Of a DNA stretch of 64,000 bases, positions 3,422-52,907 are shown piece by piece (the stretch's first letter is position 1; each line of letters starts with the position of its first letter). The stretch is from the IMG/VR virus record IMGVR_UViG_3300045961_000160; one strand, given 5' to 3'. Both the position numbers and the translations under genes were made by a program. This DNA comes from an uncultured virus (IMG/VR IMGVR_UViG_3300045961_000160). Taxonomy: Duplodnaviria > Heunggongvirae > Uroviricota > Caudoviricetes. The notes beneath the pieces are model-generated. The model had not been told where the DNA came from, made no database searches, and worked only from the letters and a program-made list of their open reading frames with translations.

Positions 3422-3652
3422 ATGAAAACAGCAGTAGAATGGTTAGCAGATGAAATAATTATGCTTGAAGAAAGATTAAGACAAGAAGAAATTAATCTAA
3501 ATGACTTTATGGATTTGAAAGATGATTTGGTAACAAAAGCTTTAGAAATGGAGAAAAAGCAGATTATTGCTGCAGTATATTATAATACAAGTGCAACTAG
3601 ACACGATGACCTACCTAAAGGAGAGAAATATTATAAAGATACATTTAAATAA
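3422..3652 (+). CDS. small 'MKTAVEWL...MEKKQII...YY..TF'-type phage protein
   Basis: N- and C-terminal signatures resemble a small-protein family I recall from aquatic Bacteroidota phages; function unknown. Confidence 0.75.
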   Translation: MKTAVEWLADEIIMLEERLRQEEINLNDFMDLKDDLVTKALEMEKKQIIAAVYYNTSATRHDDLPKGEKYYKDTFK

Positions 3653-7674: not shown

Positions 7675-8229
7675 ATGCAAAATATTACACTAGAAGACAT
7701 TAAACAATCTGTTCAAATCAGTAAAGTGTTTATATTGCCTCTTATAAATCTCTCTCAAAAAGTAAAACCTATAGAAACTTACTTAGCTATAGAAGGGCTT
7801 GAGATTTATGATGGCTATACCTTAATTTTGCTTTTTCACAATGAAGATCCAACTTATCCAGAACAGTTAAAAGAAATACAAGCAAACAAGCATTATGATT
7901 TTCATATTTCAGATGCAGAATTTGATATTGTAATTTTTGACATGAGTGAGTTAGATGTGGATTATGATCTAATTATCAATGGTCATTACTCATCATTGTC
8001 ACAAACAGCAAAAGTGCTTATTAACTACCATGGTATTACCAACAAGAAAGCACTAATAGGAATACATCCTGAATATTATTATGAACAGTACGCGAATTTA
8101 CTTGATGTAAATGTCAATACAATTAAAGGTCATGAGTTAATGCCTCCTCCAAATGCAACGGATGAGACATTAACTGTAAGTAAAAAGACCTTATTCTTCC
8201 TAAAAGAAGAATACATGATTGCAGATTAA
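7675..8229 (+). CDS. hypothetical protein
   Basis: 184-aa ORF, the last + strand gene; it converges on the virion module. Confidence 0.75.
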   Translation: MQNITLEDIKQSVQISKVFILPLINLSQKVKPIETYLAIEGLEIYDGYTLILLFHNEDPTYPEQLKEIQANKHYDFHISDAEFDIVIFDMSELDVDYDLIINGHYSSLSQTAKVLINYHGITNKKALIGIHPEYYYEQYANLLDVNVNTIKGHELMPPPNATDETLTVSKKTLFFLKEEYMIAD

Positions 8230-11200: not shown

Positions 11201-14200
11201 AAATCTCATCATATAATGGTGTTACATCTACAATAGAGTTATTAACTGCAGTAAGTGGTTCCAGTATTTGTTTTTTTTCATCAAGCAAACCACTACGATA
11301 CTCAAAGTAACTTTCATCAAGTTGAACTGTAGTGTTATTAACAATCCACTTGTCAACTTCAGCTTTAAAAGCAGGGCTATTTCTAACTAAGTTTTTTACA
11401 TTAATTAGGTAATCTTCATATGCTTCTTGTGCTCTTTCAAACTCACCTTCAACTTCTTCATATGTATGAAAGTCTTTGGTAAGTTTAGCATATTCAGTTA
11501 GAACTTTAGCTACAGCTAAATCCATTCCTGTTTTTAATTTACCATCTCTATCATATATGTTTTGCAATTGCTGGTAGTCATACCAAATTTTTTGCATTGC
11601 ATCACTTAATGCATAGTTACCCGGATCCGCATTTAAATTATCTTTGAGTAAACGCATTTCCTCAAAAAGAGCATCTCTTCTTAAACGCGCTTCAACACCT
11701 TCTGGAGTTCTGAACATTTTATCATGCTCATAGTATTCAGGAATGTTATCACGGGTCATGTAATCATTTAAAAAATCCTCCAGTGCAAACTCTGCTAACT
11801 GTAAAGCTTTTAAATGTTCTTCTTTACCATAAGCTTGGTATTGTTTTCTAGCTTTATCTACAGCCAAAGTAAGTTTAGCCATAGCCAATTCATGCCCATT
11901 AAAGTTGCTGATAAAAGCATATTCTTCAAATTCTTGAACCTCATTGTTTACAATTTCAAAAGAGCGGTTAGTTTGCTGAATGGCTTCTCCTAAAGCTTGC
12001 TCTCCGAATATATGTGTATCAAACCCTGCTTTCTTTAGAAGAGGTTGAAGGTTTTGCAAGAACTTGGTTTCTTTGGCATTAGTATTTGCATTTACCTCTT
12101 GTAAAACTTCATTAACATAACTAGAAAATCCTTGAACAATAATGTCTTGGTTCATTAAGTGAGACTCAATCATTCCATTCATCCAACTAGAATCACCTAA
12201 ACGATTCTGCATTGTATATTTAATTTGTTCTTTGGAAATATCTTTTCCAGACAATGATTTTAATTCCAAAAATTCCATTCTTGGAACCTCTGTATTTACA
12301 TCAGGAAATTGTTTTGCTTTAAGAGTTTTTAACTCATTGAGTTCTTCAACAGTTAATCCATAATACTCTTCATGTAACCTATTGTATTCAACCATCTGGT
12401 TAGCTTTTTTCAAAGCATCCATCTGATCTAAAAAATCCTGTTTAATTGGATTGTAAATTTTAATAAGGTTGTCATAAAGCACATCAATAACCGCATTAAT
12501 TTTTAACTCATCAAGTTTAGCAGTCATTGAGTTTAACTTTTGCTGCATGTCAGCCAATCTTTTACCCAAAGGATTATTGATTGAAGTATATGACTCTGGA
12601 GCAGTCATTGCAGTAAAATAATCAATTCTAGATCCATTAGTCAACTTATTGATATAATCTCTCCAGTGACTAACATATGTATCCAAAGCATGCAATGCAT
12701 CCAAATCAGTATTATCAGTAACACCATTTGCTACCAAGTCATCAATTTTGACTTCAAATTTATCAAACACTAATGCCGCCTGAACAAAACCATTGACAAA
12801 TGAATTCAAACGGTTGTTGAATTCAGTTAAATCATTTTGTGTAATCCCTGTTTGCTGAATTAGTGTTAATGGTAAGTTTGGTTTCTTGCTATTAGTTGAA
12901 AGGACATCTAAAATCTTTACCAGTTTTTGTAATTCCCCATTAAAGTTTTCATCACCTAAGTCATCTTTTAACAATTTAAAAATATCATTTTCTCTTGTGA
13001 AGTTGCTTAGTTGTTTTTTAGCAATGTCATAAAACTCATTAATAATCTTTTGAGTGACTTCTGCTGAATCTTTTGCTAACTGCTTGACCTCTGCATCATA
13101 TTCTCTTGAAAACATGATGACATCGTCTTCATTTAAAAAATCAGTATCTAAAATAAATTCACCACCTTCATTGATCATATTAAAAAACTCCGAGATACTT
13201 GTAGTTTCTCGCAGTTTTGAGATGTTGATTTTTTTACCAAATGCTTTTCTTAAAAACTGTTTGATCTCAAACAATAATTTTTGCATCCAGGATTTAGGTA
13301 CCGCAAATTTATTTTCTAATGCACGCACAATTACCTCTTCCATAAACTCAGTAGAGTTTGGAACATAGTCAGAAGACTCACCAGAAATAGTATTAAAAAT
13401 TAATTCACCTTCTTTTGTGGCCATTAATTCAGAATACAAATTAGCAAAAAGCTGCGGATTAGATTTTGCTAAAGCTTTAACAATTGGGTGTGCAAACTCA
13501 TGAAATACTACATTGGCATCAAAAGCCCCATTCACTAAGTAAACAGTTCCGCTTTTGTAAAAGCTTCTTACTTTACCAGTATTTTCACTAATTCCAAAAC
13601 GCGGACCCAAATCAGATTTAGAGATTATCTCTACAGGAATGCCCAATTGAGTTGAAAGTTTTACAATTTGATTAATTGCTCTTTCAGAGTTTTCCGCTTT
13701 GACAAGTTCTTGAATGTCTCTCAACACATCTTCTTCACTCATTAACTCCGGAGACTCTAATGTATTAGGAGCTAATTCATCTTCTACTGAATATCGGTCA
13801 ACTAATTTTTCCAAAACCACTTTGGCAGGACGCACTGTTTCATTTTGCTCAAAGTAATCTCTGTAAGCTTCTTGTTTACCCACAACTAAACTCAAAGCAT
13901 CTAACTTGCGTTTGTTTTCAGCAGAGATTTTTAATTTAGGATTAAACATCATTGTTCTCAACAATGCATCTTCAATAACCGCTACTTGATCTCTATCTGT
14001 TGTATGATCCCAACTTGCTTTTGTTGTATCAAAGATGTTATCTATTAAGCTTTCATCTTGGGCTGTAGGAGAAATGTATTCCTCAACACCCACGGTATCA
14101 TCAGCAAATTCCTGAAACGGTTGATCAGTTTTTTCACTTGGTTTAATGCCACTTAATGTCAACTCGGTAAGAGTTGGAAACATGTCTGTATTATTGTTGC

Positions 14201-14300
14201 TCATCCACAAACTGATTTTAGCTTTTAAAACGTCTGGATGAAGACCTGTTTGATTTAACAAGTCTTTGTACTGTGGATGTGATGTGTTTATGCAGTGCAT
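8226..14300 (-). CDS. giant virion cargo/ejection protein with zincin-like domain
   Basis: 2024 aa; HEFAH at 13488-13502 with a downstream EE; hydrophobic segment near the C-terminus; follows the virion RNAP as in crAss-like phages. Confidence 0.75.
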   Translation of the reverse strand: MHCINTSHPQYKDLLNQTGLHPDVLKAKISLWMSNNNTDMFPTLTELTLSGIKPSEKTDQPFQEFADDTVGVEEYISPTAQDESLIDNIFDTTKASWDHTTDRDQVAVIEDALLRTMMFNPKLKISAENKRKLDALSLVVGKQEAYRDYFEQNETVRPAKVVLEKLVDRYSVEDELAPNTLESPELMSEEDVLRDIQELVKAENSERAINQIVKLSTQLGIPVEIISKSDLGPRFGISENTGKVRSFYKSGTVYLVNGAFDANVVFHEFAHPIVKALAKSNPQLFANLYSELMATKEGELIFNTISGESSDYVPNSTEFMEEVIVRALENKFAVPKSWMQKLLFEIKQFLRKAFGKKINISKLRETTSISEFFNMINEGGEFILDTDFLNEDDVIMFSREYDAEVKQLAKDSAEVTQKIINEFYDIAKKQLSNFTRENDIFKLLKDDLGDENFNGELQKLVKILDVLSTNSKKPNLPLTLIQQTGITQNDLTEFNNRLNSFVNGFVQAALVFDKFEVKIDDLVANGVTDNTDLDALHALDTYVSHWRDYINKLTNGSRIDYFTAMTAPESYTSINNPLGKRLADMQQKLNSMTAKLDELKINAVIDVLYDNLIKIYNPIKQDFLDQMDALKKANQMVEYNRLHEEYYGLTVEELNELKTLKAKQFPDVNTEVPRMEFLELKSLSGKDISKEQIKYTMQNRLGDSSWMNGMIESHLMNQDIIVQGFSSYVNEVLQEVNANTNAKETKFLQNLQPLLKKAGFDTHIFGEQALGEAIQQTNRSFEIVNNEVQEFEEYAFISNFNGHELAMAKLTLAVDKARKQYQAYGKEEHLKALQLAEFALEDFLNDYMTRDNIPEYYEHDKMFRTPEGVEARLRRDALFEEMRLLKDNLNADPGNYALSDAMQKIWYDYQQLQNIYDRDGKLKTGMDLAVAKVLTEYAKLTKDFHTYEEVEGEFERAQEAYEDYLINVKNLVRNSPAFKAEVDKWIVNNTTVQLDESYFEYRSGLLDEKKQILEPLTAVNNSIVDVTPLYDEIYTILKANKDTTGQYDGTLLSENEQIRITELHEQIVEAQRQLFTLSGLTKEESSRLNDLIDYYAYYNAFRTQADQDEYNDYMDRYKRGLMAFGITPMQVERVKAIDVELRSITSTEATNVYVNTFMSLIDQVQDSHDLLSKFIYDNFEGLDIDGGDVIDQSHFSKVLDDVSFVNKLIAVNPAFGKWFYNNHYADMGVERDSQNNIIGEIDVFRKSAAWQYTKPTDKKYYKKKNVYSKATGALIGYIEVDGVPRVPNITYMKRTVKPQYQTVLVERDYIDQNGKLVLANIDNRGQFLPRENGKDATYINGDYKLMFSKNRDLFNLMLYVKNQFLDNQKGLDNAQKRYLLYPALRKSSLEDKTSRGYLRRRVQSFLNVWRNQPDDFELGIAAGDPETDLYNTQSRPISGNYRLPKNEVSRNIIKSMGIQLYSIEYYKALRKRNSFANMLKSTVEDLTIPSTVLSLKNRLKNTLRFTKKTDVERTNRLNKIISIIDKQFKGKQIETNRSSTVKTADLVLRKMQGLLSRAAFALNPQASLTNYFGGKIMLTLKSVDKRLFTPVSLAASQAIASSTVAKLVTDSFTNKQKNLQLQLLDIMDGIPDREKKDVGDYGSKTVAQSVFKGEHLFFDRKMLQESVAVHAFYALLHNHSFKLNGKKTPLYNAVELVNGRIETKAGVPAEYSISYDSDGNVIFGEQIKKLMNMHQGVLLKTVGQANEFSEPDVYRHILGRYAFALLKFFPSMFQDRYAFSTKRKGALRSFKNALTGKADKRVNLYLGRAETGSVIGAIEALKQIFTGKFNTLDYNAKIGLLHTTAGIAAKILLMAIVGGIMFNDDDDDDFTTSYDPDDKHRFNKLDNSTGLPNLPWIHSRYTERAGRRFDSEDYWDLQNLRLALRVQREVETFEPTDAFKTIRNIVTLKSPLGEGNLTTMVDLTTQLYNTATGQEEVYTRAAGPYYGQQKNDNKYLNSIMKFYGLTGKMADPALAIERENSGRY

Positions 14301-14304
14301 CTTA

Positions 14305-17300
14305 TTAACAATTATTTTGTTGTTCTATAATTTCTTCTTGCTCAACCAAAGATAGAGATAAAAATTCCGCTTTTGAAAGTGTTCCAGTGTAACTAGAAAA
14401 AAGTTCTTCACTTCTTTTCTGTTCAGTTTCACCAATTGATTCTACTATAATCGGAGCCTTAACTTTGTTTGCTCTAAATTTAATGATGTCATCTTTCATT
14501 TTGTACAATGCCTGCTCTATGTAACTTGCCAGTAATGAATTACCAATAGTAATTTTACCTTTAGAAGCAGTTAACGCATTAGCAAACTGAATTTTGTACT
14601 TCTGGTTTCTATTAAGTTCTTTGACAATTTTGTCATAAACAATAGCCACGCCTGATTCAAAAAGTTCAACTTCAGTCAATTTATTAAACCAGTTATCAGA
14701 TTTGTTTGAGTCAAATAAGTAACTGATCAATTCTTTACCTTTTAACTCTTCAGATGTAGTAACTGTAGAGACTTCAGACTCTGCATCTTTTCTACGCATT
14801 TCATAGTACTTACCAACTGCTGTATACACAGGAACTTTTACAAAACCGCTGTTTTCTAAATATTCAATTGCCATTTGATCAATACCAGAAGCCGTACCTA
14901 CATTGAATACTTTAACACCGGCATCAATTGCTTTTTGAATTAATGGTTTGTGGTAAGATTCAAATGTTTCATTGAGGGCTTTTTGGAACTCTTCTAATGT
15001 AGTATTACGGTAAGCATTTGCAAATACACCGCTACCAAAAATCCATACAGAATCAGCAGATTTAAATTTAGTCTTACTGGTTGCTAATTTATTTGGTTCA
15101 GTTCTATTAATTTCATTAATGTACATTTCAGTAGATGATTTGTACTTAGGATTAAGAACTGTCGCTTTTCCTATAGCAACTGTAGATGCATTGGCCATAG
15201 CCTCATCTTTAACAGAGTGAATAGGTTTTAACTCGGTACCTAATCCAGCAATAGACAAGAACCCTTCTTTTTTAAATTTAGACTTGTACTCCAACTTAGG
15301 ATAAGTTCCAGTGTTGTCAATTCCAAATTTATCTAAAAGCAAAGCATCAAATTTCTTTTGATCTTCTCCTGCAGGAACTATCATCCGCTCATTAAGAATG
15401 GCTATTTTTTTGCCCTCTAATTCATTTGCAAATTCTTCTGGGGTGTATTCACCATCTTCATCAAAAAATAAATCTACAGTCACCGGAGATACTCCTTTCG
15501 GCAATGAATTAAAGTTAGTTCTAATGTCTACATTATTAAATGCCAAAACTGTTTCAGATTTTTCTTTTGATTGACCCCATGTAAGTTTTTGAACTTCATA
15601 GTTATAACCTTTAGCTCTTACTTTATACTTAGTAGCCAACATGTTTTCAAACAATGTTTTAAATTGACCAAGCAATTGTAAGTCTGGTTCAACTGGTGCA
15701 TTATTTGGATTTCTGTTGTTCAACTCCGCAGCTTTTATGTTGTCAAAAACTTGAGCTAATTCATTTTCTACACGGGCAACACCAATACCATTTTCAATTA
15801 CATCTTGTAAATGGTTAGCATCAATGATTTTACCTAAGTCATATTTTGATCTTCGGTTTAATCCTGTTTGCATTATAGCAATGTGATTAAACAAATTAAA
15901 GAACTCTCTCACTTCCGGAGCAGAATGATTTTGCAAGTTTGCTAAGTTTTCTTTGTACTTAGCGCGCATTTGTGGATCATTAATTTCCGGTAAGAACATG
16001 TTGCTCTTCATGTTTGGAACATCATAATTAAAGCGCATGTCATTAATTAATGAAAATTCTTTGGCCAGTTCAGGATATTTTAATCTGAAATTCTTAAATA
16101 TGTTTGCAACACTTGTTGGCCCACTGAAATATGCAATGTGATTTCTTGATTTGTACAATGCAATTTTTTGTTTCAAGTATAAATCAGAAACAGGCTTTCT
16201 AGGGTTATCTAAGAAATAGTATTGAGATCTTAATTCAGAAACATCAATATCTTTTAACTTTTCAAATTCAATATAGTATCTCAAAAATTGATTTGGTGTA
16301 GCAAAATTTGATACAACATTAGTTAAGCCCGCTGCCGGATTTTGCAATTCATTTGAATAAAGATTGGAACCAAATGTTATGGTTTTTGTATCTTCATCAA
16401 TACTTAACGGTGCATTTGCATCAGTGCTTGTAACCAAATCATAACCATTGTATTTGTTATCTTGATACAATGAGTTTTGATACAAGAAGAATAAAAAGTC
16501 ATTCTTAAAGTCATTACGCATAACTTCAGGAATAATCCCTTTAACTGTGTCCAGACTAACAGAAACTTTTACTACTGCAGGATTATTTCTAAAACTAAAG
16601 TATCTTTCAAAAAGATCTACAATAAATTGGTCATTGTTAAATTGACCAACTGGTGTGTTTTTTATTCCTTTGTCTGTAAACCAATCATTTGGTACATACT
16701 TCTTTTTACTTTGATATGCTTCAATATCATCTATTCTTTTTTGAGCTTCAGAAATTGAAGATACTTTATTGGTATCAAATCTTGAAAGCTGTTGGAATTT
16801 AGATACATCATTTGCAATCTTTTCAATCTGAATGTATTCTGCTAAAGCTTCAATCTCTCTGAATTTAGGTTTACCACCAATCATATTAAACAGCTCCTCT
16901 TCAGAAAACGGAGTTTGATTTTTATTAAAGATAGCATTGAATGCCGCAGCTTCATAACCGTTTTCAGCAAATAGGTCTTTGTATTTCTCAAATACCATTG
17001 CTTGCGCTTTAGAATTAATCTTAGATGCTGGTACAACCGGATTAACATCAGGATCAGTTGATAATGCAGAATAAACACCATTCAATTCTTTTTTGAATTG
17101 ATTGTATTCCATTACCAACGGTGAAGATGCCAAATAAGCAGCAGATTCTAAATCAACACCTGCCATAACCATGAACAACAAAGTTGGTGTATTTTCTTTG
17201 TTACCTTGCATATTGAAGACCCATGCATCTTTGGCAACATCTACATAACCATTAATCAACTGAGAAAGTAAATCTGAAATAGATTGGTTCTTTGTGTTGT

Positions 17301-20300
17301 TAATAAACCCTAATGCAATTTGTTTACCAAATTCACCTTCAACTGAATTGTGATTTAAGTTGAATGTATGGCTTCTGAATTTGTTTATTATATCAGTTGC
17401 TGTCTCTTTAGCTTTAGGAGAAGCTGACGCATCATTAAGTGTAGCTAGTGCTTTGTCAAAAGCTTCTTGTTCTTTTGGAGATACCGCATTTAATTTGGCA
17501 CCAAAAGTAGTAAACACCGCATAGAACGTTGCAGTTACTGCAGCAATACCTAATGAGTCTAAACCTACAGAGTTTTCTTGATGTTTAAGCAAGTTGTATC
17601 TGTAATCAAAGATTGTAGACTTAGAAATCTTTTTTCCTGCTTTACCGTTGGCTCTGTCATATTTTGAATACTTAGATCCAGACTTAGACGCATTTAATTT
17701 ATCAGCAATCTTTTTAGAAATTGGTAATGCTGTTTTTGTAGAGTTGGCTGTAACCAAATCTTTAATGTTACCTGGAAGCAAAATTCTTTCAGCAAATAAA
17801 CCTAGAAGTTCATTTTCTAAACCTTTTATAGACTTGCCATAAATTTTTCTTTGAACTAATTCCAGTTCTTCATTTTTAACATCTAGTTGTTTTTGCAACT
17901 CATCAATTTTAGATTTGTTGTAATTAAAGAAGTCAACAGCAAGTTCCGCTCCTAACTCTTTATACATTCTATCTTTAATTGCTTGCTCTTGAATTTCAAT
18001 TAAACTGTTTACTGTATTAATTTGATCAGTGTATTGTTCAATAAACGGTACTCTATTTTTAGCTGAAATGTCAGCAAATTTCCAAATTCCTTTTTGAGCA
18101 GCATTCAAATAACCATATAGTTCTTTTCTGGTTTCAAAAAGATTTTTTTCTAAACCTTGCTCTTTTTGAATTTGCGCTTTAATCTCTGCTGAAATGGCAT
18201 TACTTTCTTCCCAGAATTTATTTCTATCTTCATACAATTCAGAAATAGAATCTTGCAATCTAGAAATAACATCCGCAATGCTTTCCTTAGATTCATACAA
18301 TTCTTCTATAGGTGTTGTAACATCACCCATGTATTTTTGTAATTCAACTTTCTTACCAATCTTAACAATGTTTGGAAACTGAGCAAACAATTTATCAATG
18401 TCATAATCGGATCCGGCTTTAGCAACAATCTCTGCTGGTAAAATAACAATTGGTCCCGCCCATTCTGGTAAGAATTCAGCAACAGTAATTGACTCTAATG
18501 CATTTGGTCCCTGTGATGGAATACGATCACCTGCAATTTGTAAAAACTGCTCATGATCTTTATTCCATTGAGGATTTCTAATTGCTTCATTTAATCTCAA
18601 GCGGGATGCCTCAAGGTCTAATTCTTTTTTACCATCTTTTGTTTCAGTGTAAACCGCAATTGGATTACCATCAAAATGATTTAAATAAAGTAACTTTTTA
18701 AAGTCACCTTGCAATGAAATTTTAACTTCCATTGCTTTAACAATCCAACTTTTGTTTTCATTAAGGACCGGATCACCATTTTCATCAACTACATGATAAA
18801 ACTTCAAACCGTTTGAACCATAATTGTAAATATCAGCCGCTGTAGGATTTTGCAAGTTAGCAAAAGCAGAAGCCTTAGTAGAATCCTCAAACATCGTTCC
18901 TGGCACCTGTACTAAAGCTTCACCAGTAACTTTTAAAGCTCTTAATTTCTTGTCTGCAAGTGTGGTTAAAATAGATTCTATTTTTTCACTGTACATTGAC
19001 AAAGACAAATCAGATTTTAATTTACCATCAGGAGTAGTAATAAACTCAATATCTTCTGGTAAAAGATCATTGTTTTTCATTTGAGCTTGTAAGTAACTAA
19101 CAAGTTTAGATGAATCTCCAACATACTTGCCGTTCTCTAATTTCAAACCAATGTCTTCTAGTAATTCATTTTTTAAATGCGCTTGGATTTTAGAAATGAC
19201 AATTTCATAACGCTTGTACCAATCATAATTCTTAGAAGCCTGTCTTCTTTTTGACTCAGATTTAAGAGCTTCCCACTTTTGCAATCTTTCAGCATCAGAT
19301 AAATTTGGCATAAAATCAGTTGGGCCAAAGTTGTCCATTAATCCAAGAACAATCATTTTACGCTTTTGAGTAGGAAGAGTAATCTTCTTTTTATATCCAG
19401 CAGCAATAAAAATTTGATTCTTTAAGTATTTAGAACTGATTCTGTTTACAGTAAATGCAACTGAATTTAAATTTCTTTTTTCATCATATACATTGTCAAA
19501 CTCAGCTTTAAATCCTGATTCTGTATCCGCTTTTACAACCTTAGAAATAGATGACACTTTTGATCCAGACTGCATGGTAACATAATCAATACCTTGCTCC
19601 ATCATTTGATCATGAAGTTTCTTTAATGGTGTGTTTTCAATTAAAGCTGGAATAAGCGGCATAAGTGAATACTTATGGAATGCCATCATTTGTAAACCAA
19701 ATTGTTTACTGTTATTGTTATTTACAGACCCATAATACTGAAACTTTCTTACCGGAAATGTAGATTTAATATCAGACTGTGCAATAGTTTCACCAGCAAG
19801 CATTTTTTGATAAAGTGCTTCTTGTGCATCAGACCACTCATTACATGAAAGGTTCATTAAACGGTAAGCATCAAATGAAATCCAACCGGCACCATCCGCT
19901 TCTTTCATCATGTCTCCATCACCATAACTTTCAGCATCAATTCCAATGATGTCTTTGAGTTGTTGTAAGTATGCAGAAGAAGTTTCTTTTTCTTTAATTA
20001 CAGCTGTATTTAAATAGCCAGTGTAATCTCTTTTGTAACTTTCACCATTATGTTTTTTGGCAAATCCAAAATTGTTAAATGCGGGATCATTTACAAAGTT
20101 TAAGAAAGATGAGTCAGATGCAAAAATATTACCAGTTGAAATCAAACCGGCAATACGCTTATGATAATCTTCACCTTCTACTTTGTATAAAGAAGCATCT
20201 CCAATAAACAATGTGGAGTAATTAGCATTCTCAATAAAGTTGTTTAAAACAAATGTCTTAAACATTTTCTTTCTTGTTTGCTTTACAGTTTGATTTTCAT

Positions 20301-23300
20301 TAGCATACTGAGCAAATACATTATCAGCAATTGTAAGCTGATCATTTTTTTCATTAAATAAAGACTCAGATTTTTTTTCAAAATATGTCTTCAAAGCCAA
20401 ATCAATTTTCTTTTTTGTTTTGGCATCTAATATGCTATTTAATGTAAATGAATCTTCTACACCTAATTTTAACAATTTGTCCTTTAGGGAAGGATCAGAT
20501 TCCAAAATGTCATCAAACATATAAAGTGATCTTCCGCGCTCTAAATAAGCAGCATCAAATTCAACTTCTTCACCATTATTAATGGCATCAACAATTGCAT
20601 TTAATCTAGTTATTCTTACTAGCTCTGCTTCAAGGTGACGGTAAAATTGATCATACAGAATAGTTGATTTTTCATTTTTATCATACGCCTCTGTAAATAT
20701 CTTTTCTACATCTGCTTTTGTAAATACTAATTCATTTTTAAGGATTACTCCATTTCTTTTAACTGGCGCATGTACAGTTAATGAAGTTGACTTAGCTTCA
20801 GAACGTAAGATCTCCTGCTTTCCTTCTAAAGTTAAATGGAAATCAGAAATGAACTTTGTTTTTTCATCAGATGAGATAGCGGAAATACCTTTGTCTTCTG
20901 TTTCAAAAATAATTTTAGAACCAGATAGGTTTTCTGCAGTAATCTTGAAATTTTTATTTCTTGTTCCATATACACCCGGATCTTTTGATTCAAGGTTAAA
21001 CATGTTGATTAGCCAAGGAGAAGCTGCAGCAAATGGATTGTTATCCACATCAAACATTTCTAAACCTGGAACCTTAATTAACTCATCATAGCTTGACGCA
21101 TTATTTAATGCATTGATCATGATTGTCAAAGAAGAGTTCAAAGATTTTTCACTTTGCTTGTCTCCTGACGCATTTACACCCATGAAGCCAGCATTCTCAT
21201 CAGAGAACATAAATTGAAGCTCCTGTAGTTGTTTAAACCAACCATTCAGTCCAATTTGTTTCTTAGTTTCAGTAGAACCTTCTTCACGGTAGGAAAAATC
21301 AGTAAACAAATCTTTTAATGAGTAAACAACTCTATCAGATTCCTTAACAGCATTTTCTCTGTTAAGCATTGATTCCAGTATGTTATTTATAATCCCTGGC
21401 TCAATACCTAATGATGCATTACCGTTAATTAAAATATCAGCAACAACTTCATCTTCCACAAGATCAATACCTAAGTTTCTAAGGAACTCAAATGGTTTTG
21501 CAACAGCTTTGTAAGTTAAGCGGGTATATTTTGTTCCTGCCGGTGCCTCATCTTTATTGGTAATAAATGCAGGACCGTTCCCAGAAATCAAACCAAATCC
21601 TTTTTCTGCATATTCTAACGCAAGATCAGTAGGCAATAAAAAATGCACACCACGATCAGCATTATATCCATAGTTGTCATTTGTTTGAGAAACAAAAACA
21701 AAATTATCTCCCCAATCACTAGCAATTCTTTGAGTTTGTGATTTAGATCTTCCAGACCTTGCTTCATAAGTAACTTGTTTTTGGTCATTAACTTTTTTCT
21801 CCAAAATGAATTCTCTAAGAATCAAATCAGATTTATTCATTACTTGCCAAAAAGCTAACCATTGTTTTTGCTCTTCAGTTGAAATCTTAGGATTAGTCAA
21901 ATCACCAAGCTTCAATAAAATCTGTTTGATTTCATAATCAGTTTCAGCTGCTTTAACAAGCTTGTGGTACATTTCTACACGGTCAGTTGTATTGCGCAAA
22001 ATCTTACTTGTTTTAGCAAGCATCTGTGCAAATGGTTGTAGTTTTTTAATACCTAGTGAATTGACAAGTAAGGTTCCTTTACCGTTATTTGAGTATGCAT
22101 GAATAGAACTAAGCAACTGTTTAGTTTGAGCATCAGTTAATTCAGCTAATGATTTTTCTGTTCCAGTGCGATCAAAAAGAAATTGAAATCTTTCTTCATC
22201 ATTCATTTCATCAGTCAAATCAAATTCCGGATTGGTTACATTGATTGTGCTGTAGTTATTTAAATACAAACCAATCATGTTTGTATTTGTATCAGTTCCT
22301 AAATAGTCTAATGCATTTTCAATAGATCCAAAATTGTCTAAGACTTTTGATAAAGTATTGTATGCAAAACTAGGTGTTTCACCTTTTTTAGGTTTCAATA
22401 AGTCTCTTTGTTGTGTAAGTCTATTTTTGACATAAGTAAGTGCATATGTTAAAACAGCAGGGTTATTAGCAACAGCAAATACACCGTACCCATTTATGGT
22501 GCCGGCAGTTTTATTTAACTTGTCAATTTCAGACATGATTTGTGCATGCTTCTTAGAATCAAGTTTAACAGTAGATGATTCAATCAACAACTTTACAACT
22601 TTTAAATTAGTTGCGCGGTTAGTGTTTGCATTAATACCATAGTTAATAAATTCACTTATAAGTGAATTAAATGACTCCATACTTACTTGAACCTCTTCTA
22701 AAGAAAAATTTGTGTCAGGTGTAGAAATCTCAGATGACTTAAATAATAATTCTGAAGAAGCCTGTGGATTAAACTTGCTTATATCAATGTTACCTTCATA
22801 GAGTGCATTAAACATAGCATTAACAACACCGTTAGCTTGATTTAATGCTACTGCTTCATTATATGTCATGCTGGCACCAAACATACCTTTTAGTAAGTTC
22901 CATACCTTTTCAAAAAATTGACCAACACGGGTAGAATACTTTGATGACAGTTTACCTTTAGAAGCAGCAAAATCTTGAAATCTTTCAGCTAAGTATTCTT
23001 CAATTTCTAAGTCACTAGCATCAGAAAACGCAATTGTCTTTTTGACACCTTTTACAATAACTGAAAACTTGCCTGGTGTTTTTTTAACTTCAGCATACAG
23101 TGCTTCGCGCTCTTCTTTGGTAAGAACCGCCTGTGTAAAAGCATGAAATACCTCATGGTAAACATCTGCCTTGTTTGATCCAAGGTACATGTTTATGGCA
23201 CCTTTGATGTATTCTCCTAAAAAGCTAGGTCCTTTTTCATGAATTTCATCAAAATAGTTAATAGCCAATTCTTTGGCAAGCGGGTTTGATTTAATCCACT

Positions 23301-25143
23301 CTTCAACTTTTTGTTCTTGAGCTGCTGTTGGTTTGTTTTCTAAATTTTGTTCAGCAACTGTTTTAAATAAAACTTCTTCATCTGGTGTTTCTACATCAGC
23401 AATATAATCTAACTCAGGAGTTAATGCTAAATAAGATCCAAAACCTCTAATCTCCATGTTTAAATTAGGAACAAATGAAGTCTTGGTGTTTTCAATAATA
23501 TGTTGCTTGTGAGTTTTCTTACCCAAAGTAATTACACCATCTTTAACAGAAACAGGAAAATCAAATTCAGCACTTAAATCAGTAGTGCGTTCAATGTTCA
23601 TGTTTCTTTTAGGAGCCGTTGTAACCGCATAAGTTCCATCAGCTTTAACAAATACTTGATCAGTATCTGTAGTTGCCTCTAATGAAGCAAATGGTGATAT
23701 ATTGGTAAACTTACTAGAATACAAATATGGTTTGCTTGTTCTAGTTGTAAAGTAATCTTTAAGTGTTTGTTTAATCAGTTCTTTGTTTTCTGAATTGATT
23801 TCAATTACACTGTTACCAATTTTCATAAAGTACTCTTTTGAGAACTTACCAGTTTTGTCATCTCTGACTGTTTTAATCTGGTACTCAAAGTTTGCACTTT
23901 GCTGGTGGAAGTAATAAATTAAAGCTCTTCTTTTTTCTGACTTGATTGTTCCTTTCCATCCTTCAATTTTAAGTTTAGGATCAGTAATCAATTCAGTTAA
24001 AATATTTAACTCTTCATCAGAAATGTCTTCTAATGATTTTTCAAAAAGAATGTTTTTAGCTGCGGTACCAAGTGCATTTCCAGAAACTGGTGCATAAATT
24101 ACAGGATACCAGTTTTTCTCTGTTTGCTCAATTGATAAATTAAGATCATTGACATTAGAGATTTCAGATAATGCAGTTTTGTTGTGAATGTTAGATTCTA
24201 CAAATCCCATAGAACTTGCATTCAAATCAATGTTAACTTTTGCAGTTTCACCTGCTTTATGTTTTTGAATTAAATCATTGACTATATCTAAATAACCATT
24301 AATTTCTTGTTCAACTTTTAAACTAGCCGCTTCTGCAGTCATTCCTTGAGAAATGTAAACACCAGTTTTAGTTTTAGCTAAGTAATCAAACTCAGCACGG
24401 TTTTGTTTAAATGCATAAACCGGAGTTTTACCTTCAGTCGCTAAGTTACCAGTTTCATCAAATTTTGCAATTTCACCAGAACTTGTAATTGGAACCAACA
24501 CAAGTAATTCAGGATTTGCATTATTCAATGTGTTATTAATTCCACTCAAAGAATTTAACTCAGATTGGCTAACAACTTTAAACTGTAAATTATTCTTGTT
24601 GCCATTTTGTATAATAGCCCTTTGAACAGCAAATTCAAACTCTTTAGTCGGATCAGTGATGTTATTTGAATAACCTACACCTTCCTCATAAATCATTTCC
24701 TGGTTTACAGTTTTGAACAACTCAAATGAAACAGCTTCAAAGCGCATGTCTCTTTCTACAGGAGCCACAACTTTAGTAGTACCTAATACTCTTCCAAGTT
24801 CTGCAATAACATCTTGGAAAGCTTTAGGAGAATCTGCTTGTGATGCTTCATAGATTTTTTGACTCCATTCATTCATTCCTGCTAACAACTCTGGGTTGTT
24901 TGCCGATGGCGTTTCACCCATATATTGTTTTACAACTTGGGGAAGAATACTTAAATGCTGTAGAATCAATTCTTTGTTTCTTACATCATTCAAACCTGTA
25001 TTCTTAAAATTAGACAAAGCCTCGTCAAACATTTTGTTTAACAAGGCTGTTGCTGTAATTTTATTTGTAAATTGGCTCGGTAATTGCTTTTTGAAGTAGC
25101 TTGCAAAAAGCTTTACAGACTCCGGGGTAATACAAATATTCAT
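14305..25143 (-). CDS. virion-packaged DNA-dependent RNA polymerase (crAss-like, phi14:2 gp66-type) with N-terminal zincin-like domain
   Basis: 3612 aa; catalytic region GDRIPSQG...IVAKAGSDYDIDKLF (DxDxD at 18394-18408); EADGAGWIS, HKYSLMPL and PTQKRK motifs; HEVFH...EEYLAE zincin at 23143-23157. Confidence 0.9.
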   Translation of the reverse strand: MNICITPESVKLFASYFKKQLPSQFTNKITATALLNKMFDEALSNFKNTGLNDVRNKELILQHLSILPQVVKQYMGETPSANNPELLAGMNEWSQKIYEASQADSPKAFQDVIAELGRVLGTTKVVAPVERDMRFEAVSFELFKTVNQEMIYEEGVGYSNNITDPTKEFEFAVQRAIIQNGNKNNLQFKVVSQSELNSLSGINNTLNNANPELLVLVPITSSGEIAKFDETGNLATEGKTPVYAFKQNRAEFDYLAKTKTGVYISQGMTAEAASLKVEQEINGYLDIVNDLIQKHKAGETAKVNIDLNASSMGFVESNIHNKTALSEISNVNDLNLSIEQTEKNWYPVIYAPVSGNALGTAAKNILFEKSLEDISDEELNILTELITDPKLKIEGWKGTIKSEKRRALIYYFHQQSANFEYQIKTVRDDKTGKFSKEYFMKIGNSVIEINSENKELIKQTLKDYFTTRTSKPYLYSSKFTNISPFASLEATTDTDQVFVKADGTYAVTTAPKRNMNIERTTDLSAEFDFPVSVKDGVITLGKKTHKQHIIENTKTSFVPNLNMEIRGFGSYLALTPELDYIADVETPDEEVLFKTVAEQNLENKPTAAQEQKVEEWIKSNPLAKELAINYFDEIHEKGPSFLGEYIKGAINMYLGSNKADVYHEVFHAFTQAVLTKEEREALYAEVKKTPGKFSVIVKGVKKTIAFSDASDLEIEEYLAERFQDFAASKGKLSSKYSTRVGQFFEKVWNLLKGMFGASMTYNEAVALNQANGVVNAMFNALYEGNIDISKFNPQASSELLFKSSEISTPDTNFSLEEVQVSMESFNSLISEFINYGINANTNRATNLKVVKLLIESSTVKLDSKKHAQIMSEIDKLNKTAGTINGYGVFAVANNPAVLTYALTYVKNRLTQQRDLLKPKKGETPSFAYNTLSKVLDNFGSIENALDYLGTDTNTNMIGLYLNNYSTINVTNPEFDLTDEMNDEERFQFLFDRTGTEKSLAELTDAQTKQLLSSIHAYSNNGKGTLLVNSLGIKKLQPFAQMLAKTSKILRNTTDRVEMYHKLVKAAETDYEIKQILLKLGDLTNPKISTEEQKQWLAFWQVMNKSDLILREFILEKKVNDQKQVTYEARSGRSKSQTQRIASDWGDNFVFVSQTNDNYGYNADRGVHFLLPTDLALEYAEKGFGLISGNGPAFITNKDEAPAGTKYTRLTYKAVAKPFEFLRNLGIDLVEDEVVADILINGNASLGIEPGIINNILESMLNRENAVKESDRVVYSLKDLFTDFSYREEGSTETKKQIGLNGWFKQLQELQFMFSDENAGFMGVNASGDKQSEKSLNSSLTIMINALNNASSYDELIKVPGLEMFDVDNNPFAAASPWLINMFNLESKDPGVYGTRNKNFKITAENLSGSKIIFETEDKGISAISSDEKTKFISDFHLTLEGKQEILRSEAKSTSLTVHAPVKRNGVILKNELVFTKADVEKIFTEAYDKNEKSTILYDQFYRHLEAELVRITRLNAIVDAINNGEEVEFDAAYLERGRSLYMFDDILESDPSLKDKLLKLGVEDSFTLNSILDAKTKKKIDLALKTYFEKKSESLFNEKNDQLTIADNVFAQYANENQTVKQTRKKMFKTFVLNNFIENANYSTLFIGDASLYKVEGEDYHKRIAGLISTGNIFASDSSFLNFVNDPAFNNFGFAKKHNGESYKRDYTGYLNTAVIKEKETSSAYLQQLKDIIGIDAESYGDGDMMKEADGAGWISFDAYRLMNLSCNEWSDAQEALYQKMLAGETIAQSDIKSTFPVRKFQYYGSVNNNNSKQFGLQMMAFHKYSLMPLIPALIENTPLKKLHDQMMEQGIDYVTMQSGSKVSSISKVVKADTESGFKAEFDNVYDEKRNLNSVAFTVNRISSKYLKNQIFIAAGYKKKITLPTQKRKMIVLGLMDNFGPTDFMPNLSDAERLQKWEALKSESKRRQASKNYDWYKRYEIVISKIQAHLKNELLEDIGLKLENGKYVGDSSKLVSYLQAQMKNNDLLPEDIEFITTPDGKLKSDLSLSMYSEKIESILTTLADKKLRALKVTGEALVQVPGTMFEDSTKASAFANLQNPTAADIYNYGSNGLKFYHVVDENGDPVLNENKSWIVKAMEVKISLQGDFKKLLYLNHFDGNPIAVYTETKDGKKELDLEASRLRLNEAIRNPQWNKDHEQFLQIAGDRIPSQGPNALESITVAEFLPEWAGPIVILPAEIVAKAGSDYDIDKLFAQFPNIVKIGKKVELQKYMGDVTTPIEELYESKESIADVISRLQDSISELYEDRNKFWEESNAISAEIKAQIQKEQGLEKNLFETRKELYGYLNAAQKGIWKFADISAKNRVPFIEQYTDQINTVNSLIEIQEQAIKDRMYKELGAELAVDFFNYNKSKIDELQKQLDVKNEELELVQRKIYGKSIKGLENELLGLFAERILLPGNIKDLVTANSTKTALPISKKIADKLNASKSGSKYSKYDRANGKAGKKISKSTIFDYRYNLLKHQENSVGLDSLGIAAVTATFYAVFTTFGAKLNAVSPKEQEAFDKALATLNDASASPKAKETATDIINKFRSHTFNLNHNSVEGEFGKQIALGFINNTKNQSISDLLSQLINGYVDVAKDAWVFNMQGNKENTPTLLFMVMAGVDLESAAYLASSPLVMEYNQFKKELNGVYSALSTDPDVNPVVPASKINSKAQAMVFEKYKDLFAENGYEAAAFNAIFNKNQTPFSEEELFNMIGGKPKFREIEALAEYIQIEKIANDVSKFQQLSRFDTNKVSSISEAQKRIDDIEAYQSKKKYVPNDWFTDKGIKNTPVGQFNNDQFIVDLFERYFSFRNNPAVVKVSVSLDTVKGIIPEVMRNDFKNDFLFFLYQNSLYQDNKYNGYDLVTSTDANAPLSIDEDTKTITFGSNLYSNELQNPAAGLTNVVSNFATPNQFLRYYIEFEKLKDIDVSELRSQYYFLDNPRKPVSDLYLKQKIALYKSRNHIAYFSGPTSVANIFKNFRLKYPELAKEFSLINDMRFNYDVPNMKSNMFLPEINDPQMRAKYKENLANLQNHSAPEVREFFNLFNHIAIMQTGLNRRSKYDLGKIIDANHLQDVIENGIGVARVENELAQVFDNIKAAELNNRNPNNAPVEPDLQLLGQFKTLFENMLATKYKVRAKGYNYEVQKLTWGQSKEKSETVLAFNNVDIRTNFNSLPKGVSPVTVDLFFDEDGEYTPEEFANELEGKKIAILNERMIVPAGEDQKKFDALLLDKFGIDNTGTYPKLEYKSKFKKEGFLSIAGLGTELKPIHSVKDEAMANASTVAIGKATVLNPKYKSSTEMYINEINRTEPNKLATSKTKFKSADSVWIFGSGVFANAYRNTTLEEFQKALNETFESYHKPLIQKAIDAGVKVFNVGTASGIDQMAIEYLENSGFVKVPVYTAVGKYYEMRRKDAESEVSTVTTSEELKGKELISYLFDSNKSDNWFNKLTEVELFESGVAIVYDKIVKELNRNQKYKIQFANALTASKGKITIGNSLLASYIEQALYKMKDDIIKFRANKVKAPIIVESIGETEQKRSEELFSSYTGTLSKAEFLSLSLVEQEEIIEQQNNC

Positions 25144-25144
25144 G

Positions 25145-28100
25145 TTATTTACATTTTGTTAACTGCTCAAGAATTCTATTATCAATCTCTGCATTATCAA
25201 GTTTGTCAAACTCTAAAGTGCTAACTGTAAAGTTATTGAAAATATCTTGATATGTAGTTTTAATATAGTCAATTTCTTGGTCATTAACAACTGTATCTAC
25301 ATTTAATTTTGTAAATTCTTGGCCCGGAAGAAGTACATCTTGAGCATTTAAAAATTCTGAATAAGGGACTGTAAACAACTCTCCAGTACTCAAATCAACC
25401 AAATCCACAGTTTTATCTGTTTTGTTGTATCCTTCAATCTGTAATGCCATGTCATTTAGCACTACTGATTTTCCAACATACATACCTTGATTTAGTTTTC
25501 TTTCCATCAAGTCATTTAATAACGCTTTTTGCTTTTCAGTAAAAATGGAGTATCTGTTTACATAGTCATACATTCCTAAGAATAAAGCAAGGTCATCAAA
25601 ATTCTTTGAATCATTCAAAAGACTTTTTAATCTAGCAACCATTTCAAAAGAATCCATGCTGTTAAATAAACCTAAATCAATAACTTCATTAAATCTTTTT
25701 GTGGTATTAGCTTCAGCGCGTTTGTTTTGCTCTAAAGTTTCTTCAAATGCTTCAAAACCATCTTCATAATCATCATTAGCTTGATCATTAGCAAATTCTG
25801 GATCATTAGTATCATAAAGACCATCCTCAACAGCTTTATCAAATATTTTTTGTTGAGTATCTGTAAGAGTCATGTTGTATAAATCTTTCAGACTAATAAG
25901 GCCATTTTCAATTTTGTATTCAAGTGAATTGTAATATTCAGCCATTGACTCAAAGTAGTCCGCGCTGTATCCTGAATTAATAAAATTAGCCCAGTCTAAA
26001 GCACTTTCTTCTTGTTCTTTTTTTGCTTGTTCAGCTTCATACTTTTCACGCTCTTCATACTCATCATAATTTTCATCAGTTTGATTAGTTGCTTGTTTAA
26101 TTTCAGAAGCAATACCAGCCATCATTTCTTTTAAACTGCTATACTGATTAATCACATCATTAATTACTTCAACCCAGTTAAAATCTTCACCGAGAAGTTC
26201 TTTGTAATCCTGATTAATTAAATCAGCAAAACCATCTGATGTTCTAATTTTAGATTTGTTAGAAAGCAAGTTTTTCTTGATGTTAATTTCACCTTGGCCT
26301 CTAACTAAGTTGCGCGTAATAAAATCTGGATTTAATCTATTATTCTTAGAAGCAGCAAACCATTTAGCAATAAGTGCTTTTGCAAACAATTCTCCTGGTT
26401 GTTCTTCACCAAAGTAATTGTTGATGACTTCTAAATCAGACTTGTATTTTGTAACCGGTTGTGCATTTAATTTACGGTCCCTTGCTTCTAAGGTGTAAAT
26501 GCCATTGATTCCACTTTTAGATTTCACAATGGTTAATTTACTACCAGCTTTGATGAAATTATTATTTAATGCCTTTACCGTAGAAGGAAACAGCATGCCC
26601 ATCTTTTGAACCTTTAGGAAGAGATCAATGATGCTATTCTCTAATGCTTCTGGCGATTCAGTATTCAACGGGCTTGTCCTATAGCCTTTAGCAGATGAAT
26701 CAATAATCTTCTTCTGTAAGTATAGGGCACTATAAAGAGACTTGTTATCTTCTGCTCTAAATAGATTAGGGTGATGAACAAGTAAAAGGTCAAGCTCAGT
26801 CTTAGAAAGTTTAAGTAAGACTTCTTTTCCTTTGTACTCAGCAATCATGCGTTTACCATTGGCAACATTATCTAACATAGTCTCAATGTTACCGTAGTAC
26901 ATTGAATCAAATATGTCTAGTTGCTCATAAGCATTGTCAGAAATTTCATTTGCAAGTTGACTGTTTGCTATCTTAACTCCTTTGAGTTTCTTTTCATTGA
27001 CATAAGCAATGACATCAGGAATCTTGAAAGGGGAAAGTTTACTATCACTCATCAGCATTCCAACAAGCTTCTTAACCTCGGCATCAGATAAAACCGCATA
27101 GTCATCCTTCAAAACCTTTTTAAGCAACTCTACAACACTTTCTCGCTCCATTTGACTCAATGGTACAATAGATGCTCTACGTGCTCTTCTACGGGCTCTA
27201 GCTTCTTCTTTCTGTTGTTGAATTCTATCTTGAGCTAAAGCCTTTGCGCGCTCTATCTCTGTAGCATTCATTTGTCTTATGGTTTCCTCATCAAGTTCTA
27301 CTACTGGCTCCACATAAACATCTACATCTTCTTTCTCTCTATTGTATCTAATAATGAGATCTGTGTATTCAGAATTAGTAGCCATTTCTTTTTGGATAGC
27401 TTCTATTTCTTCAGCTGTAGGATCACCTGTTCGAACTGCTGATTCAATTACAATCTTTCCACTAAGAACTTTAGCTTTGAAGTTTCTACCTAAGTCTTCA
27501 TTCAACTTAACAAAATCAGCATCCCATTTTTCCTTAACTGGGAGGTTAACTTTACCATTTACATCTGGTTGAGCTGCCATAAAGTTGGCTTCAAGTTGTG
27601 CTATTTGCTTTTTGAAATAACCTTTTAGCTCTTCTAACTCATTAATAGATGCAGATTGTCTGAAGTATTTAATTAGAATTTCTTGTAAATCAAATGGTAA
27701 TAACTCAAATGGAGTCTTATCAGTGACTACAACTTTATTCTCATCATCTCTTACTACTTCAGTTTCTACAACATCAACAACAGCCTGTGCTTCTTCCGGA
27801 TCCGCACCCAGTGTATCGTCAAATGAATACTGAGTATCATATTCTTCCTGGAGACGGTTAATGTCATCCATTAAAGCCAGACGCTTATTGTTTAGCTTGA
27901 TTCTTTTTCTGAAATTTAATTTGCCTAATGTAGATAACTGTGCATCAATTGCATTTAGCAAATTTGTTTTCTCTAGAATTTCATTTTGTAACTTGCTGGC
28001 TTTATCAACCTCATCTTCATCAACTTCAACATCTTCCTGCTCAAGAACCGGCTCAAGCTCTTCTAAAGGACCCACTTCTTGACTAAGTGGAACATCTTCA

Positions 28101-49201: not shown

Positions 49202-49211
49202 AATTAATTTT

Positions 49212-49895: not shown

Positions 49896-49897
49896 AA

Positions 49898-50980: not shown

Positions 50981-50991
50981 ATCTTAAAGTA

Positions 50992-51699: not shown

Positions 51700-51701
51700 G
51701 G

Positions 51702-52863: not shown

Positions 52864-52868
52864 AACTT

Positions 52869-52877
52869 ATAATATAC
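52869..52877 (-). promoter_or_regulatory. putative late-promoter motif GTATATTAT
   Basis: Intergenic; 16-bp identity with the motif at 47995-48010. Confidence 0.6.
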
Positions 52878-52907
52878 TAATTTTAATTTAATTTTCCTAA
52901 TCCATGA

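Follow-up and report, generated by a model that had tools for sequence, protein, structure and literature searches.

A candidate head-to-tail disulfide chain among the giant RNA polymerase-block proteins of a crAss-like phage

A 64,000-nucleotide (nt) stretch of DNA from an uncultured virus of the Caudoviricetes (IMG/VR record IMGVR_UViG_3300045961_000160), here called the window, carries three giant genes that abut on its minus strand. The first protein, gpA (25145..31699, 2184 amino acids (aa)), is followed, 1 nt from stop to start, by gpB (14305..25143, 3612 aa), a virion-type RNA polymerase (RNAP) protein, and gpB is followed after 4 nt by the last one, gpC (8226..14300, 2024 aa). Together the three proteins contain 5 cysteines (Cys) in 7,820 residues (0.064 %), in a window whose 34 open reading frames (ORFs) of at least 100 aa have a joint Cys share of 0.92 %, and four of these five residues stand at the tips of the termini that face each other across the two gene junctions. 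Here, we describe this pattern and its conservation in Crassvirales, which suggest that gpA, gpB and gpC may be joined head-to-tail by disulfide bonds.

Terminal cysteines and identity of the block

The only Cys of gpA is Cys2183 of 2184 (TGT, 25151..25153, minus strand, as are all codons of the block; ...LTKCK), and none is found at its N-terminus. Facing it across the junction is Cys4 of gpB (TGT, 25132..25134; MNICITP...). At the other end of gpB the last residue, Cys3612 (TGT, 14308..14310; ...EQQNNC), faces the N-terminus of gpC, where the only Cys of that protein, Cys3 (TGC, 14292..14294; MHCINT...), is located, and the C-terminus of gpC has none. The sole non-terminal Cys of the three, gpB Cys1767 (19843..19845), is not conserved family-wide, and the outer ends of the chain (MANELD... 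and ...ENSGRY) are Cys-free. An initial annotation of the window had counted by eye five Cys in the three giants, four at facing ends and none at the outer ends; the computed count bears this out and the codon coordinates it gave for the four terminal Cys were exact. Under uniform placement, the probability of at least 4 of the 5 Cys falling in the 16 junction positions is 8.7e-11, and it is 4.4e-10 when any of the six termini (24 positions) is allowed.

Anchored on the Cys, the consensus tips read ...ELTK[C]K for the gpA C-terminus, MNI[C]ITPESIKLF for the gpB N-terminus, ...IIEQQxx[C] for the gpB C-terminus and Mx[C]xNxNSPEFKxLL for the gpC N-terminus. Most sequences have 0-2 residues after the C-terminal Cys and 2-3 before the N-terminal one, and because these Cys lie at the extreme tips, a tip-to-tip link would leave almost no branch. 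No second metal ligand (His, Asp or Cys) is conserved beside the terminal Cys. The similar acidic helix that had been seen at both C-termini was recovered only faintly, since profile comparison of the last 46 residues aligned 18 columns with a P of 7e-4 and a probability of 27 %, and the N-terminal modules of gpB and gpC were also weakly alike (6 columns aligned, P 9e-3); with profile matches this weak, neither the two C-terminal nor the two N-terminal modules are claimed as paralogues.

An AlphaFold2 model of gpB 1-560, built from 30 sequences, had a mean predicted local distance difference test score (pLDDT) of 62 and a predicted template modelling score (pTM) of 0.40, with residues 1-10, including Cys4, below a pLDDT of 50. 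Foldseek comparison of this model with the PDB gave no match at E <= 0.001, and no chain of cyanopodophage A4 (Anabaena phage A-4L), the precedent compared below, was among the matches listed. A complex prediction of gpC 1-400 and zinc with gpB 3530-3612, from the window sequences alone, scored 0.36 versus 0.24 for the control, a result that counts neither for nor against an interaction. Split inteins and protein trans-splicing were rejected, as Cys placed 0-2 residues from a C-terminus and at residues 3-5 leave no room for intein halves and no Pfam match was found, and frameshift fusion was considered and rejected as a cause of the pattern.

By its gene content, the window is best read as the structural half of a distant, environmental crAss-like phage and gpA-gpC as its virion-packaged RNAP block, in which gpA, gpB and gpC are the apparent counterparts of phi14:2 gp67, gp66 and gp65 and of crAss001 gp47, gp50 and gp49. 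A hidden Markov model (HMM) of the gpB RNAP core matched phi14:2 gp66 (E 2.7e-33), the gp50-like protein of Kehishuvirus (E 2.1e-23) and IAS virus gp056 (E 1.9e-20), and gpB carries the catalytic motif DYDID (residues 2246-2250, 18394..18408), whose D2246, D2248 and D2250 are invariant in 27 homologues. It also has a zincin motif, HEVFH (residues 663-667, 23143..23157), with H663, E664 and H667 invariant, in a domain named Z1. A second such domain, Z2, is found in gpC with the motif HEFAH (residues 267-271, 13488..13502; H267, E268 and H271 invariant), and its HMM matched the gp49-like protein of Kehishuvirus (E 1e-7), cr118_1 gp15 (E 9e-23) and cr108_1 gp052; phi14:2 gp65 fell below the threshold of this search but nevertheless has HEIMH at residue 245. 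The gpA HMM gave no match among the A-type proteins of gut Crassvirales, its sole match being P0038, a gpB homologue, and gpA is therefore equated with gp47 and gp67 by its position, size and Cys pattern.

Other searches returned little. Matches by tblastn were short, were confined to the surroundings of the catalytic motif and fell in 15 Crassvirales-type records, annotated RNAP genes among them; gpA and gpC gave nothing usable against the phage collection. Searches of PHROGs, Pfam and PDB sequences found nothing for the three giants and three neighbours, bar one sub-threshold DUF6921 match. The gpB homologues P0009, P0012, P0014, P0016, P0019, P0021, P0022 and P0031 have precomputed Pfam matches to AlkB-like dioxygenase (PF13532), AAA/kinase (PF13671) and PF25176, unlike gpB itself, which has no Pfam match.

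The RNAP-block proteins of phi14:2 were found in the virion by mass spectrometry according to the record notes, and those of crAss001 are likewise known from the virion by mass spectrometry in the available text of the structural atlas (PMC10172136); homology to both phages and gene order suggest that the window giants are also packed in the virion and ejected. The description of the block as cargo-RNAP-cargo in the initial annotation proved to be a simplification, given that gpB and gpC carry zincin HExxH domains and that the literature calls all three proteins RNAP-associated.

Upstream of the block on the same strand are the genes for the portal (62249-63970) and the major head protein (59162-60778), collagen-like tail fibre genes, a 1637-aa virion structural protein and four proteins of 582-941 aa with 0-2 Cys each, so ordered (portal, major head protein, tail proteins, giants) as in phi14:2. 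The collagen-like tail-fibre paralogues with PHROG tail fibre matches form a run at 48116-53684 (minus strand) and are Cys-rich (1.4-6.8 %), in contrast with the Cys-free internal proteins; four of them begin with M(x)CxxC (MCTKCK, MCVKCG, MSCPTC and MSCSKC). A 598-aa protein at 27-1823 (plus strand) combines HNH endonuclease and Dda-like helicase matches.

Conservation of the terminal cysteines and their relation to gene breaks

Families of gpA, gpB and gpC were collected by word-indexed searches, and terminal Cys were tallied in the first 8 and last 8 residues. For gpA, 120 of the 141 homologues found are listed, and among these 111/120 have a C-terminal Cys and 0/120 an N-terminal one, with 111 of their 113 Cys, in 278,899 residues, being terminal. 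The gpB family (n=37) has an N-terminal Cys in 29/37 and a C-terminal Cys in 35/37, and the homologues lacking the former are mostly proteins of 4,000-5,000 aa. In the gpC family (n=97) the N-terminal Cys is present in 93/97 and a C-terminal one in 0/97; the four exceptions are Cys-free, and two of them begin with a non-Met residue.

An index-free search with the RNAP core (gpB 1600-2750) retrieved 1,635 proteins at E <= 0.001, and the best 150, each of which stands for one 50 %-identity cluster, were tallied. An N-terminal Cys was present in 135 of these best 150 and a C-terminal Cys in 145, while 98 have exactly two Cys; among the 135 of them with at least 3,000 aa, the counts are 131 and 135. 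The 19 in which a terminal Cys is missing at one end or both are mostly below 3,000 aa and have the look of fragments. In alignments, gpA C2183 is an invariant column among 69 picked sequences and gpB C3612 is invariant among 27 sequences, and among the C-terminal 300 residues of 29 gpA-type proteins, which share 9-16 % identity with the window, no column but that of the Cys is invariant. The terminal pattern is kept in hundreds of proteins at 22-60 % identity, and conservation across Crassvirales, which had been put forward as a check on the pattern, reaches down to about 22 % identity and spans three Crassvirales families.

The same arrangement was seen at the level of whole loci. Scanning IMG/VR with one B-type protein matched 104 stretches, from which 80 loci were kept, 72 of them distinct; ORFs were called mechanically from the first Met after a stop, and a junction was defined as two consecutive large ORFs of the block. 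A Cys lies within 10 residues of both facing termini in 125 of the 128 junctions. Two junctions have no Cys on either side: the one in L027 lies between an upstream 610-aa protein and A, that is, at the outer edge of the chain, and the one in L058 splits, in frameshift-like manner, an A protein that is whole in close relatives. Complete N-termini of first ORFs have a Cys in 3/15 cases, all B-type proteins with the A partner cut by the contig end, and complete C-termini of last ORFs in 2/68, both B-type with the C partner beyond the locus.

The block was also read in 12 reference genomes, which with the window make 13 genomes from three Crassvirales families, including phi14:2, p-crAssphage and a relative of crAss001. 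A Cys no more than 8 residues from the terminus is found at 31/34 inner termini and at 0/26 outer termini. In phi14:2 the sole Cys of gp67 (1797 aa) is its last residue, gp66 (2180 aa) contains C3 and C2179, and gp65 (1421 aa) contains C3, so that the three proteins have 1, 2 and 1 Cys and all four are terminal. In Kehishuvirus 'tikkala', which belongs to the genus of crAss001, the gp47-like protein (2310 aa) has C2309 only, the gp49-like protein (1349 aa) has C5 only and the gp50-like protein (2412 aa) has C5, C1334 and C2404. Kehishuvirus and IAS virus encode the A-type gene on the opposite strand from B and C and retain the terminal Cys. Over the 13 genomes the terminal Cys codons are TGT in 27 cases and TGC in 5.

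Some reference records have annotation features of their own. In cr273_1 (L012, 6738-30272) the giant ORFs contain in-frame stop codons, and in Dulem virus 42 (L013) the same region is annotated as many small coding sequences (CDS), which points to stop-codon recoding of this region in both phages. In crAss002 (L007, 10433-10531) an in-frame MSCTPSNP, resembling the N-terminal Cys module of relatives, is located 32 codons inside the annotated gp33, whose start is probably mis-annotated. The RNAP gene of cr108_1 (L005, 20163-20452) is given as two CDS broken by about 290 nt inside the DxDxD catalytic motif (...AKAGSD and LYDIDK...); this break has no Cys, has the appearance of an intron-type insert and was not counted as a protein break. 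The break between gp055 and gp056 of IAS virus was set aside because of ambiguous bases at the junction.

Differences in gene organization between lineages show where the Cys pairs go when the chain is divided differently. Domain Z1, at gpB 591-798 in the window, maps to residues 2117-2225 of the 2310-residue gp47-like protein of Kehishuvirus (E 5e-12), and also maps inside the fused proteins of cr118_1, cr55_1 and cr108_1. The break between A and B is therefore about 590 residues upstream of Z1 in the window lineage and about 85 residues downstream of it in Kehishuvirus, and Cys occur in either lineage at the break it has, and are missing from the place where the other is broken.

An additional break is seen in six IMG/VR loci, in which a link protein, X, is encoded between B and C. 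It has 242-261 aa in L046 (17952-18737), L052 (15390-16148), L053 (8686-9444), L060 (15048-15776) and L071 (3005-3754) and 655 aa in L056 (17343-19310), and it contains exactly two Cys, at residue 3 and at the last residue. The C-terminal 120 residues of X share 27-37 % identity (E down to 6e-18) with the C-terminal 120 residues of B of L061, L062 and L065, where B and X form one fused protein whose only Cys are C5 and the last residue, with none at the joint.

Fused forms of A and B behave in the same way. The A+B fusion cr55_1 gp070 (4,551 aa) has only C4026 and C4548, none at the joint, and its partner gp071 starts with MSIIC; P0038, one of the gpB homologues that lack the N-terminal Cys and recognized as an A+B fusion by its gpA-like N-terminal part, has only C3326 and C4296, and again none at the joint. 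In the B+C fusions of five Intestiviridae, including p-crAssphage, the A-type protein ends in Cys, the fused protein starts with M-x-C and has a Cys-free C-terminus, and one pair is left. Their joints are not placeable to the residue, and a joint Cys is not kept with any consistency: the 4,098 aa of Rudgehvirus contain 4 Cys, and C2096/C2099 or C1972/C1973 of cr3_1 may be relics of a former break.

In the best-resolved fused forms the joint is free of Cys, and the Cys-bearing termini are throughout twice the number of breaks, that is, 2, 4 or 6 for 2, 3 or 4 proteins. The expectation of the initial annotation that split genes should gain Cys pairs at their new termini agrees with these data, in which differently placed or extra breaks carry pairs exactly there. 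Overall, the pairs appear to follow the breaks of the chain in most cases.

Proposed head-to-tail disulfide linkage and its alternatives

From this pattern in sequences, and by analogy with A4, we propose, with a probability of roughly 0.65, that gpA, gpB and gpC are joined head-to-tail by disulfides. Inside the particle, the lone Cys at the C-terminal tip of one protein would bond with the lone Cys at the N-terminal tip of the next, resulting in a single covalent chain, A-S-S-B-S-S-C, in which each disulfide would replace the peptide bond found in relatives with fused genes. Absence of Cys elsewhere would prevent wrong pairings in proteins unfolded for ejection, and after injection the reducing cytoplasm would open the links and free the subunits. 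A disulfide is the simplest chemistry, as one thiol faces one thiol and no other ligand is present, and the location of the Cys at the extreme tips with almost no branch, together with the interchange between a Cys pair and a peptide bond, is in keeping with a requirement for covalent continuity. The purpose may be to co-package the proteins equally by one packaging signal, to have them pass the tail in order, or both. The earlier claim that the facing terminal Cys form inter-protein links thus draws partial support from conservation, from the pairs at breaks, from their loss in the best-resolved fusions and from the A4 precedent, although the bond itself is only inferred.

Several observations weigh against this proposal. 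Cys loss after fusion is not universal, since cr3_1 gp24 keeps Cys near the presumed joint (...FVCNMCE... and ...MQCCNPDKF...) and cr118_1 gp14 keeps C2041, and also C2317, in the presumed joint region. In Kehishuvirus the last Cys of the gp50-like protein stands 9th from the end, the nearest Cys of cr273_1 gp35 is 50 residues from the end, which makes it the one clear exception to the C-terminal rule, and crAss002 gp33 conforms only when its start is moved 32 codons downstream. Nine of the 120 listed gpA homologues have no Cys at all, although several share N-termini with longer relatives and look truncated, and B of L046 has no N-terminal Cys as called, leaving a one-sided junction with a 197-nt gap that suggests a mis-called start. 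Virion assembly takes place in the reducing cytoplasm and gut crassviruses live in anoxic conditions, which leaves the timing of disulfide formation unclear. No experiment or structure shows the bond in any crassvirus, and the A4 proteins have no detectable homology to the gpA-gpC families, so that the precedent is an analogy. In the available text of the crAss001 atlas the RNAP-associated proteins are unresolved in the structure; the inter-subunit disulfides that it reports in the tail and portal-vertex proteins of this phage speak for the proposal (PMC10172136). Finally, sequence cannot exclude other pairings, such as A-C plus a closed B, or homodimers.

This last point leads to the best surviving alternative, in our view an improbable one, in which the terminal Cys form bonds elsewhere: in A-A or C-C homodimers, in a self-closed B accompanied by an A-C link, or with the portal or other particle proteins. 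Sequence carries no direct pairing information, and the weak profile similarity among the C-terminal modules and among the N-terminal modules means that specificity for a cognate partner is not evident. Yet the Cys-bearing termini always number twice the breaks, each break having a C-terminal Cys on one side and an N-terminal Cys on the other and the outer ends none. The pairs are also absent from several fused forms, and nothing would oblige a Cys that served dimerisation or portal binding to disappear on fusion. Cargo-like proteins next to the block, moreover, hold only 0-2 Cys.

Nearly the same low standing is given to pairing of the facing termini through a bridging metal ion, for example zinc, or through non-covalent docking, with no disulfide involved. 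Such pairing would suit assembly in a reducing cytoplasm and the anoxic habitats of the gut phages that make up many of the carriers; HExxH motifs lie near several junctions (window gpB 663, gpC 267 and residue 2157 of 2310 in the Kehishuvirus gp47-like protein), and the presumed B+C joint of cr3_1 has C-N-M-C, which is CxxC-like. But there is one Cys per terminus with no conserved adjacent His, Asp or Cys, the Cys being the sole invariant column of the 29-sequence gpA-type alignment, and phi14:2 gp67 and gp66 have a Cys pair with no HExxH anywhere in either protein. In addition, the one solved example of the signature, that of A4, is described in the accessible part of its report as a disulfide (PMC12002296).

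We consider it quite unlikely that the Cys are processing or regulatory sites, either as a cysteine switch capping the zinc of the adjacent zincin or as leftover cleavage residues of an ancestral polyprotein. The available text of the phi14:2 preprint does state that some phages have the three proteins in fused form, 'likely cleaved', and that gp65 has a zincin-like protease domain (Drobysheva et al., bioRxiv 10.1101/2020.03.07.982082). Some Cys termini, too, have a zincin domain at a distance of 85-660 residues. Genes that are separate require no cleavage, though, and yet the Cys is kept under strong selection; several fused proteins are Cys-free at the joint, the zincin distance varies widely, the gp67/gp66 pair of phi14:2 has no zincin nearby, and link protein X has both Cys.

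The conservation tallies (p of about 9e-11 in the window, and hundreds of proteins at 22-60 % identity) and the opposite-strand A genes that keep the Cys, with both Cys codons used and variable flanking residues, refute chance as well as any side effect of nucleotide signals at tight junctions such as the 1-nt and 4-nt spacers of the window.

Returning to the head-to-tail disulfide chain, an extended version of it is more tentative and we regard it as doubtful, though well ahead of the alternatives above in our estimate. In it, the block would be a redox-cleavable polyprotein, in which two to four giants form one thread of about 6,500-8,000 residues that passes out through the tail in a set order, with each protein drawing the following one behind it, and is cut by reduction in the host cytoplasm. 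Equally tentatively, fusion and fission would be interchangeable because disulfide and peptide bond do the same job.

Significance and comparison with known systems

In the human gut, few phages are as abundant as crassviruses, and to our knowledge it is not known by what means they package and deliver several megadaltons of protein, among them the polymerase with which infection begins. A simple sequence rule that holds order-wide would tell which protein ends meet, and would indicate that covalent continuity matters. The Cys pairs can also be used as an aid to annotation, since they show where genes truly end and start, reveal small link genes that were missed, and separate real gene fission from frameshift artefacts (as in L058, L046 and the start of crAss002 gp33). 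The model is directly testable in the cultivable marine phage phi14:2 on Cellulophaga baltica.

Among known systems, those closest to the window block include phi14:2 gp65/gp66/gp67 and crAss001 gp47/gp49/gp50, with which it shares a DxDxD giant flanked by two giant partners, a place downstream of structural genes, zincin domains and the terminal Cys pattern. The proteins are very distant, and the 3,612-aa gpB includes Z1, which in Kehishuvirus belongs to the A-type protein. The words cysteine, Cys and disulfide have 0 occurrences in the accessible portion of the phi14:2 RNAP preprint (bioRxiv 10.1101/2020.03.07.982082), and in that of the crAss001 atlas cysteine has 0 occurrences and disulfides are named only for tail and portal-vertex proteins (Bayfield et al. 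2023, PMC10172136). A wider search of the literature, covering main texts and few subscription journals, found no description joining crAss-like phages or Crassvirales to terminal cysteines, or to a disulfide and RNA polymerase.

Coliphage N4 also packs a giant RNA polymerase in its capsid and ejects it, and shows extreme Cys avoidance, with 0 Cys in the 3,500, 644 and 150 aa of gp50 (L094, 14523-27523), gp51 and gp52. Unlike the window block, the N4 proteins have no terminal Cys and therefore no such covalent coupling, and the polymerase fold is unrelated, being T7-like versus two-barrel. As the N4 polymerase and its two partners are Cys-free, Cys avoidance may be general for ejected proteins, and the comparison suggests that the terminal pairs are a specific addition. 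Analogies of principle, with no homology, are provided by modular polyketide synthases, in which docking domains join the C-terminal tail of a subunit to the N-terminus of the following one and fix their order non-covalently, and by AB toxins, in which an interchain disulfide, not at the chain tips, holds two chains across a membrane and is reduced in the cytosol.

The nearest functional parallel is found in cyanopodophage A4, where, in the accessible text of the report, cryo-electron microscopy shows a disulfide between gp27 Cys1715 and gp26 Cys5 in the virion pre-ejectosome (PNAS 2025, PMC12002296). In the A-4L record, gp27 (1,717 aa) has the single Cys 1715 and gp26 (1,114 aa) the single Cys 5, so that, as in the window, a sole or near-sole Cys near a C-terminus is followed by one near the N-terminus of the next gene product. 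Both systems have consecutive genes for large ejection proteins, described for A4 as all-alpha and capsid-internal, and in A4 the next protein serves as docking site for a C-terminal helix, which is locked there by the disulfide (PMC12002296). They differ in that A4 has one pair rather than a chain of two or three, has no RNA polymerase and belongs to another family (Saffermanviridae), and its bond is treated in the text available as a stabiliser of a pentameric ring and not as a rule tied to gene fission or fusion (PMC12002296). Family HMMs and BLAST against A4 gp25-gp29, a five-sequence search, gave nothing below E 0.002, and with no homology to gpA, gpB or gpC, A4 is a functional parallel and not the same protein family. 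It is also the only paper we found, as far as its accessible text goes, that joins ejection proteins, a disulfide bond and a pre-ejectosome (PMC12002296). The view of the initial annotation that such linkage had not been described thus stands for crassviruses, for which nothing was found in the literature, but not for the principle, published in 2025: what is new here is the terminal-Cys rule in crassviruses, and what was already known is a disulfide between C-terminal and N-terminal Cys of consecutive ejection proteins, in A4 (PMC12002296). Taken together with A4, the crassvirus pattern suggests that tip-to-tip disulfides are a recurring device of the ejection proteins of short-tailed phages.

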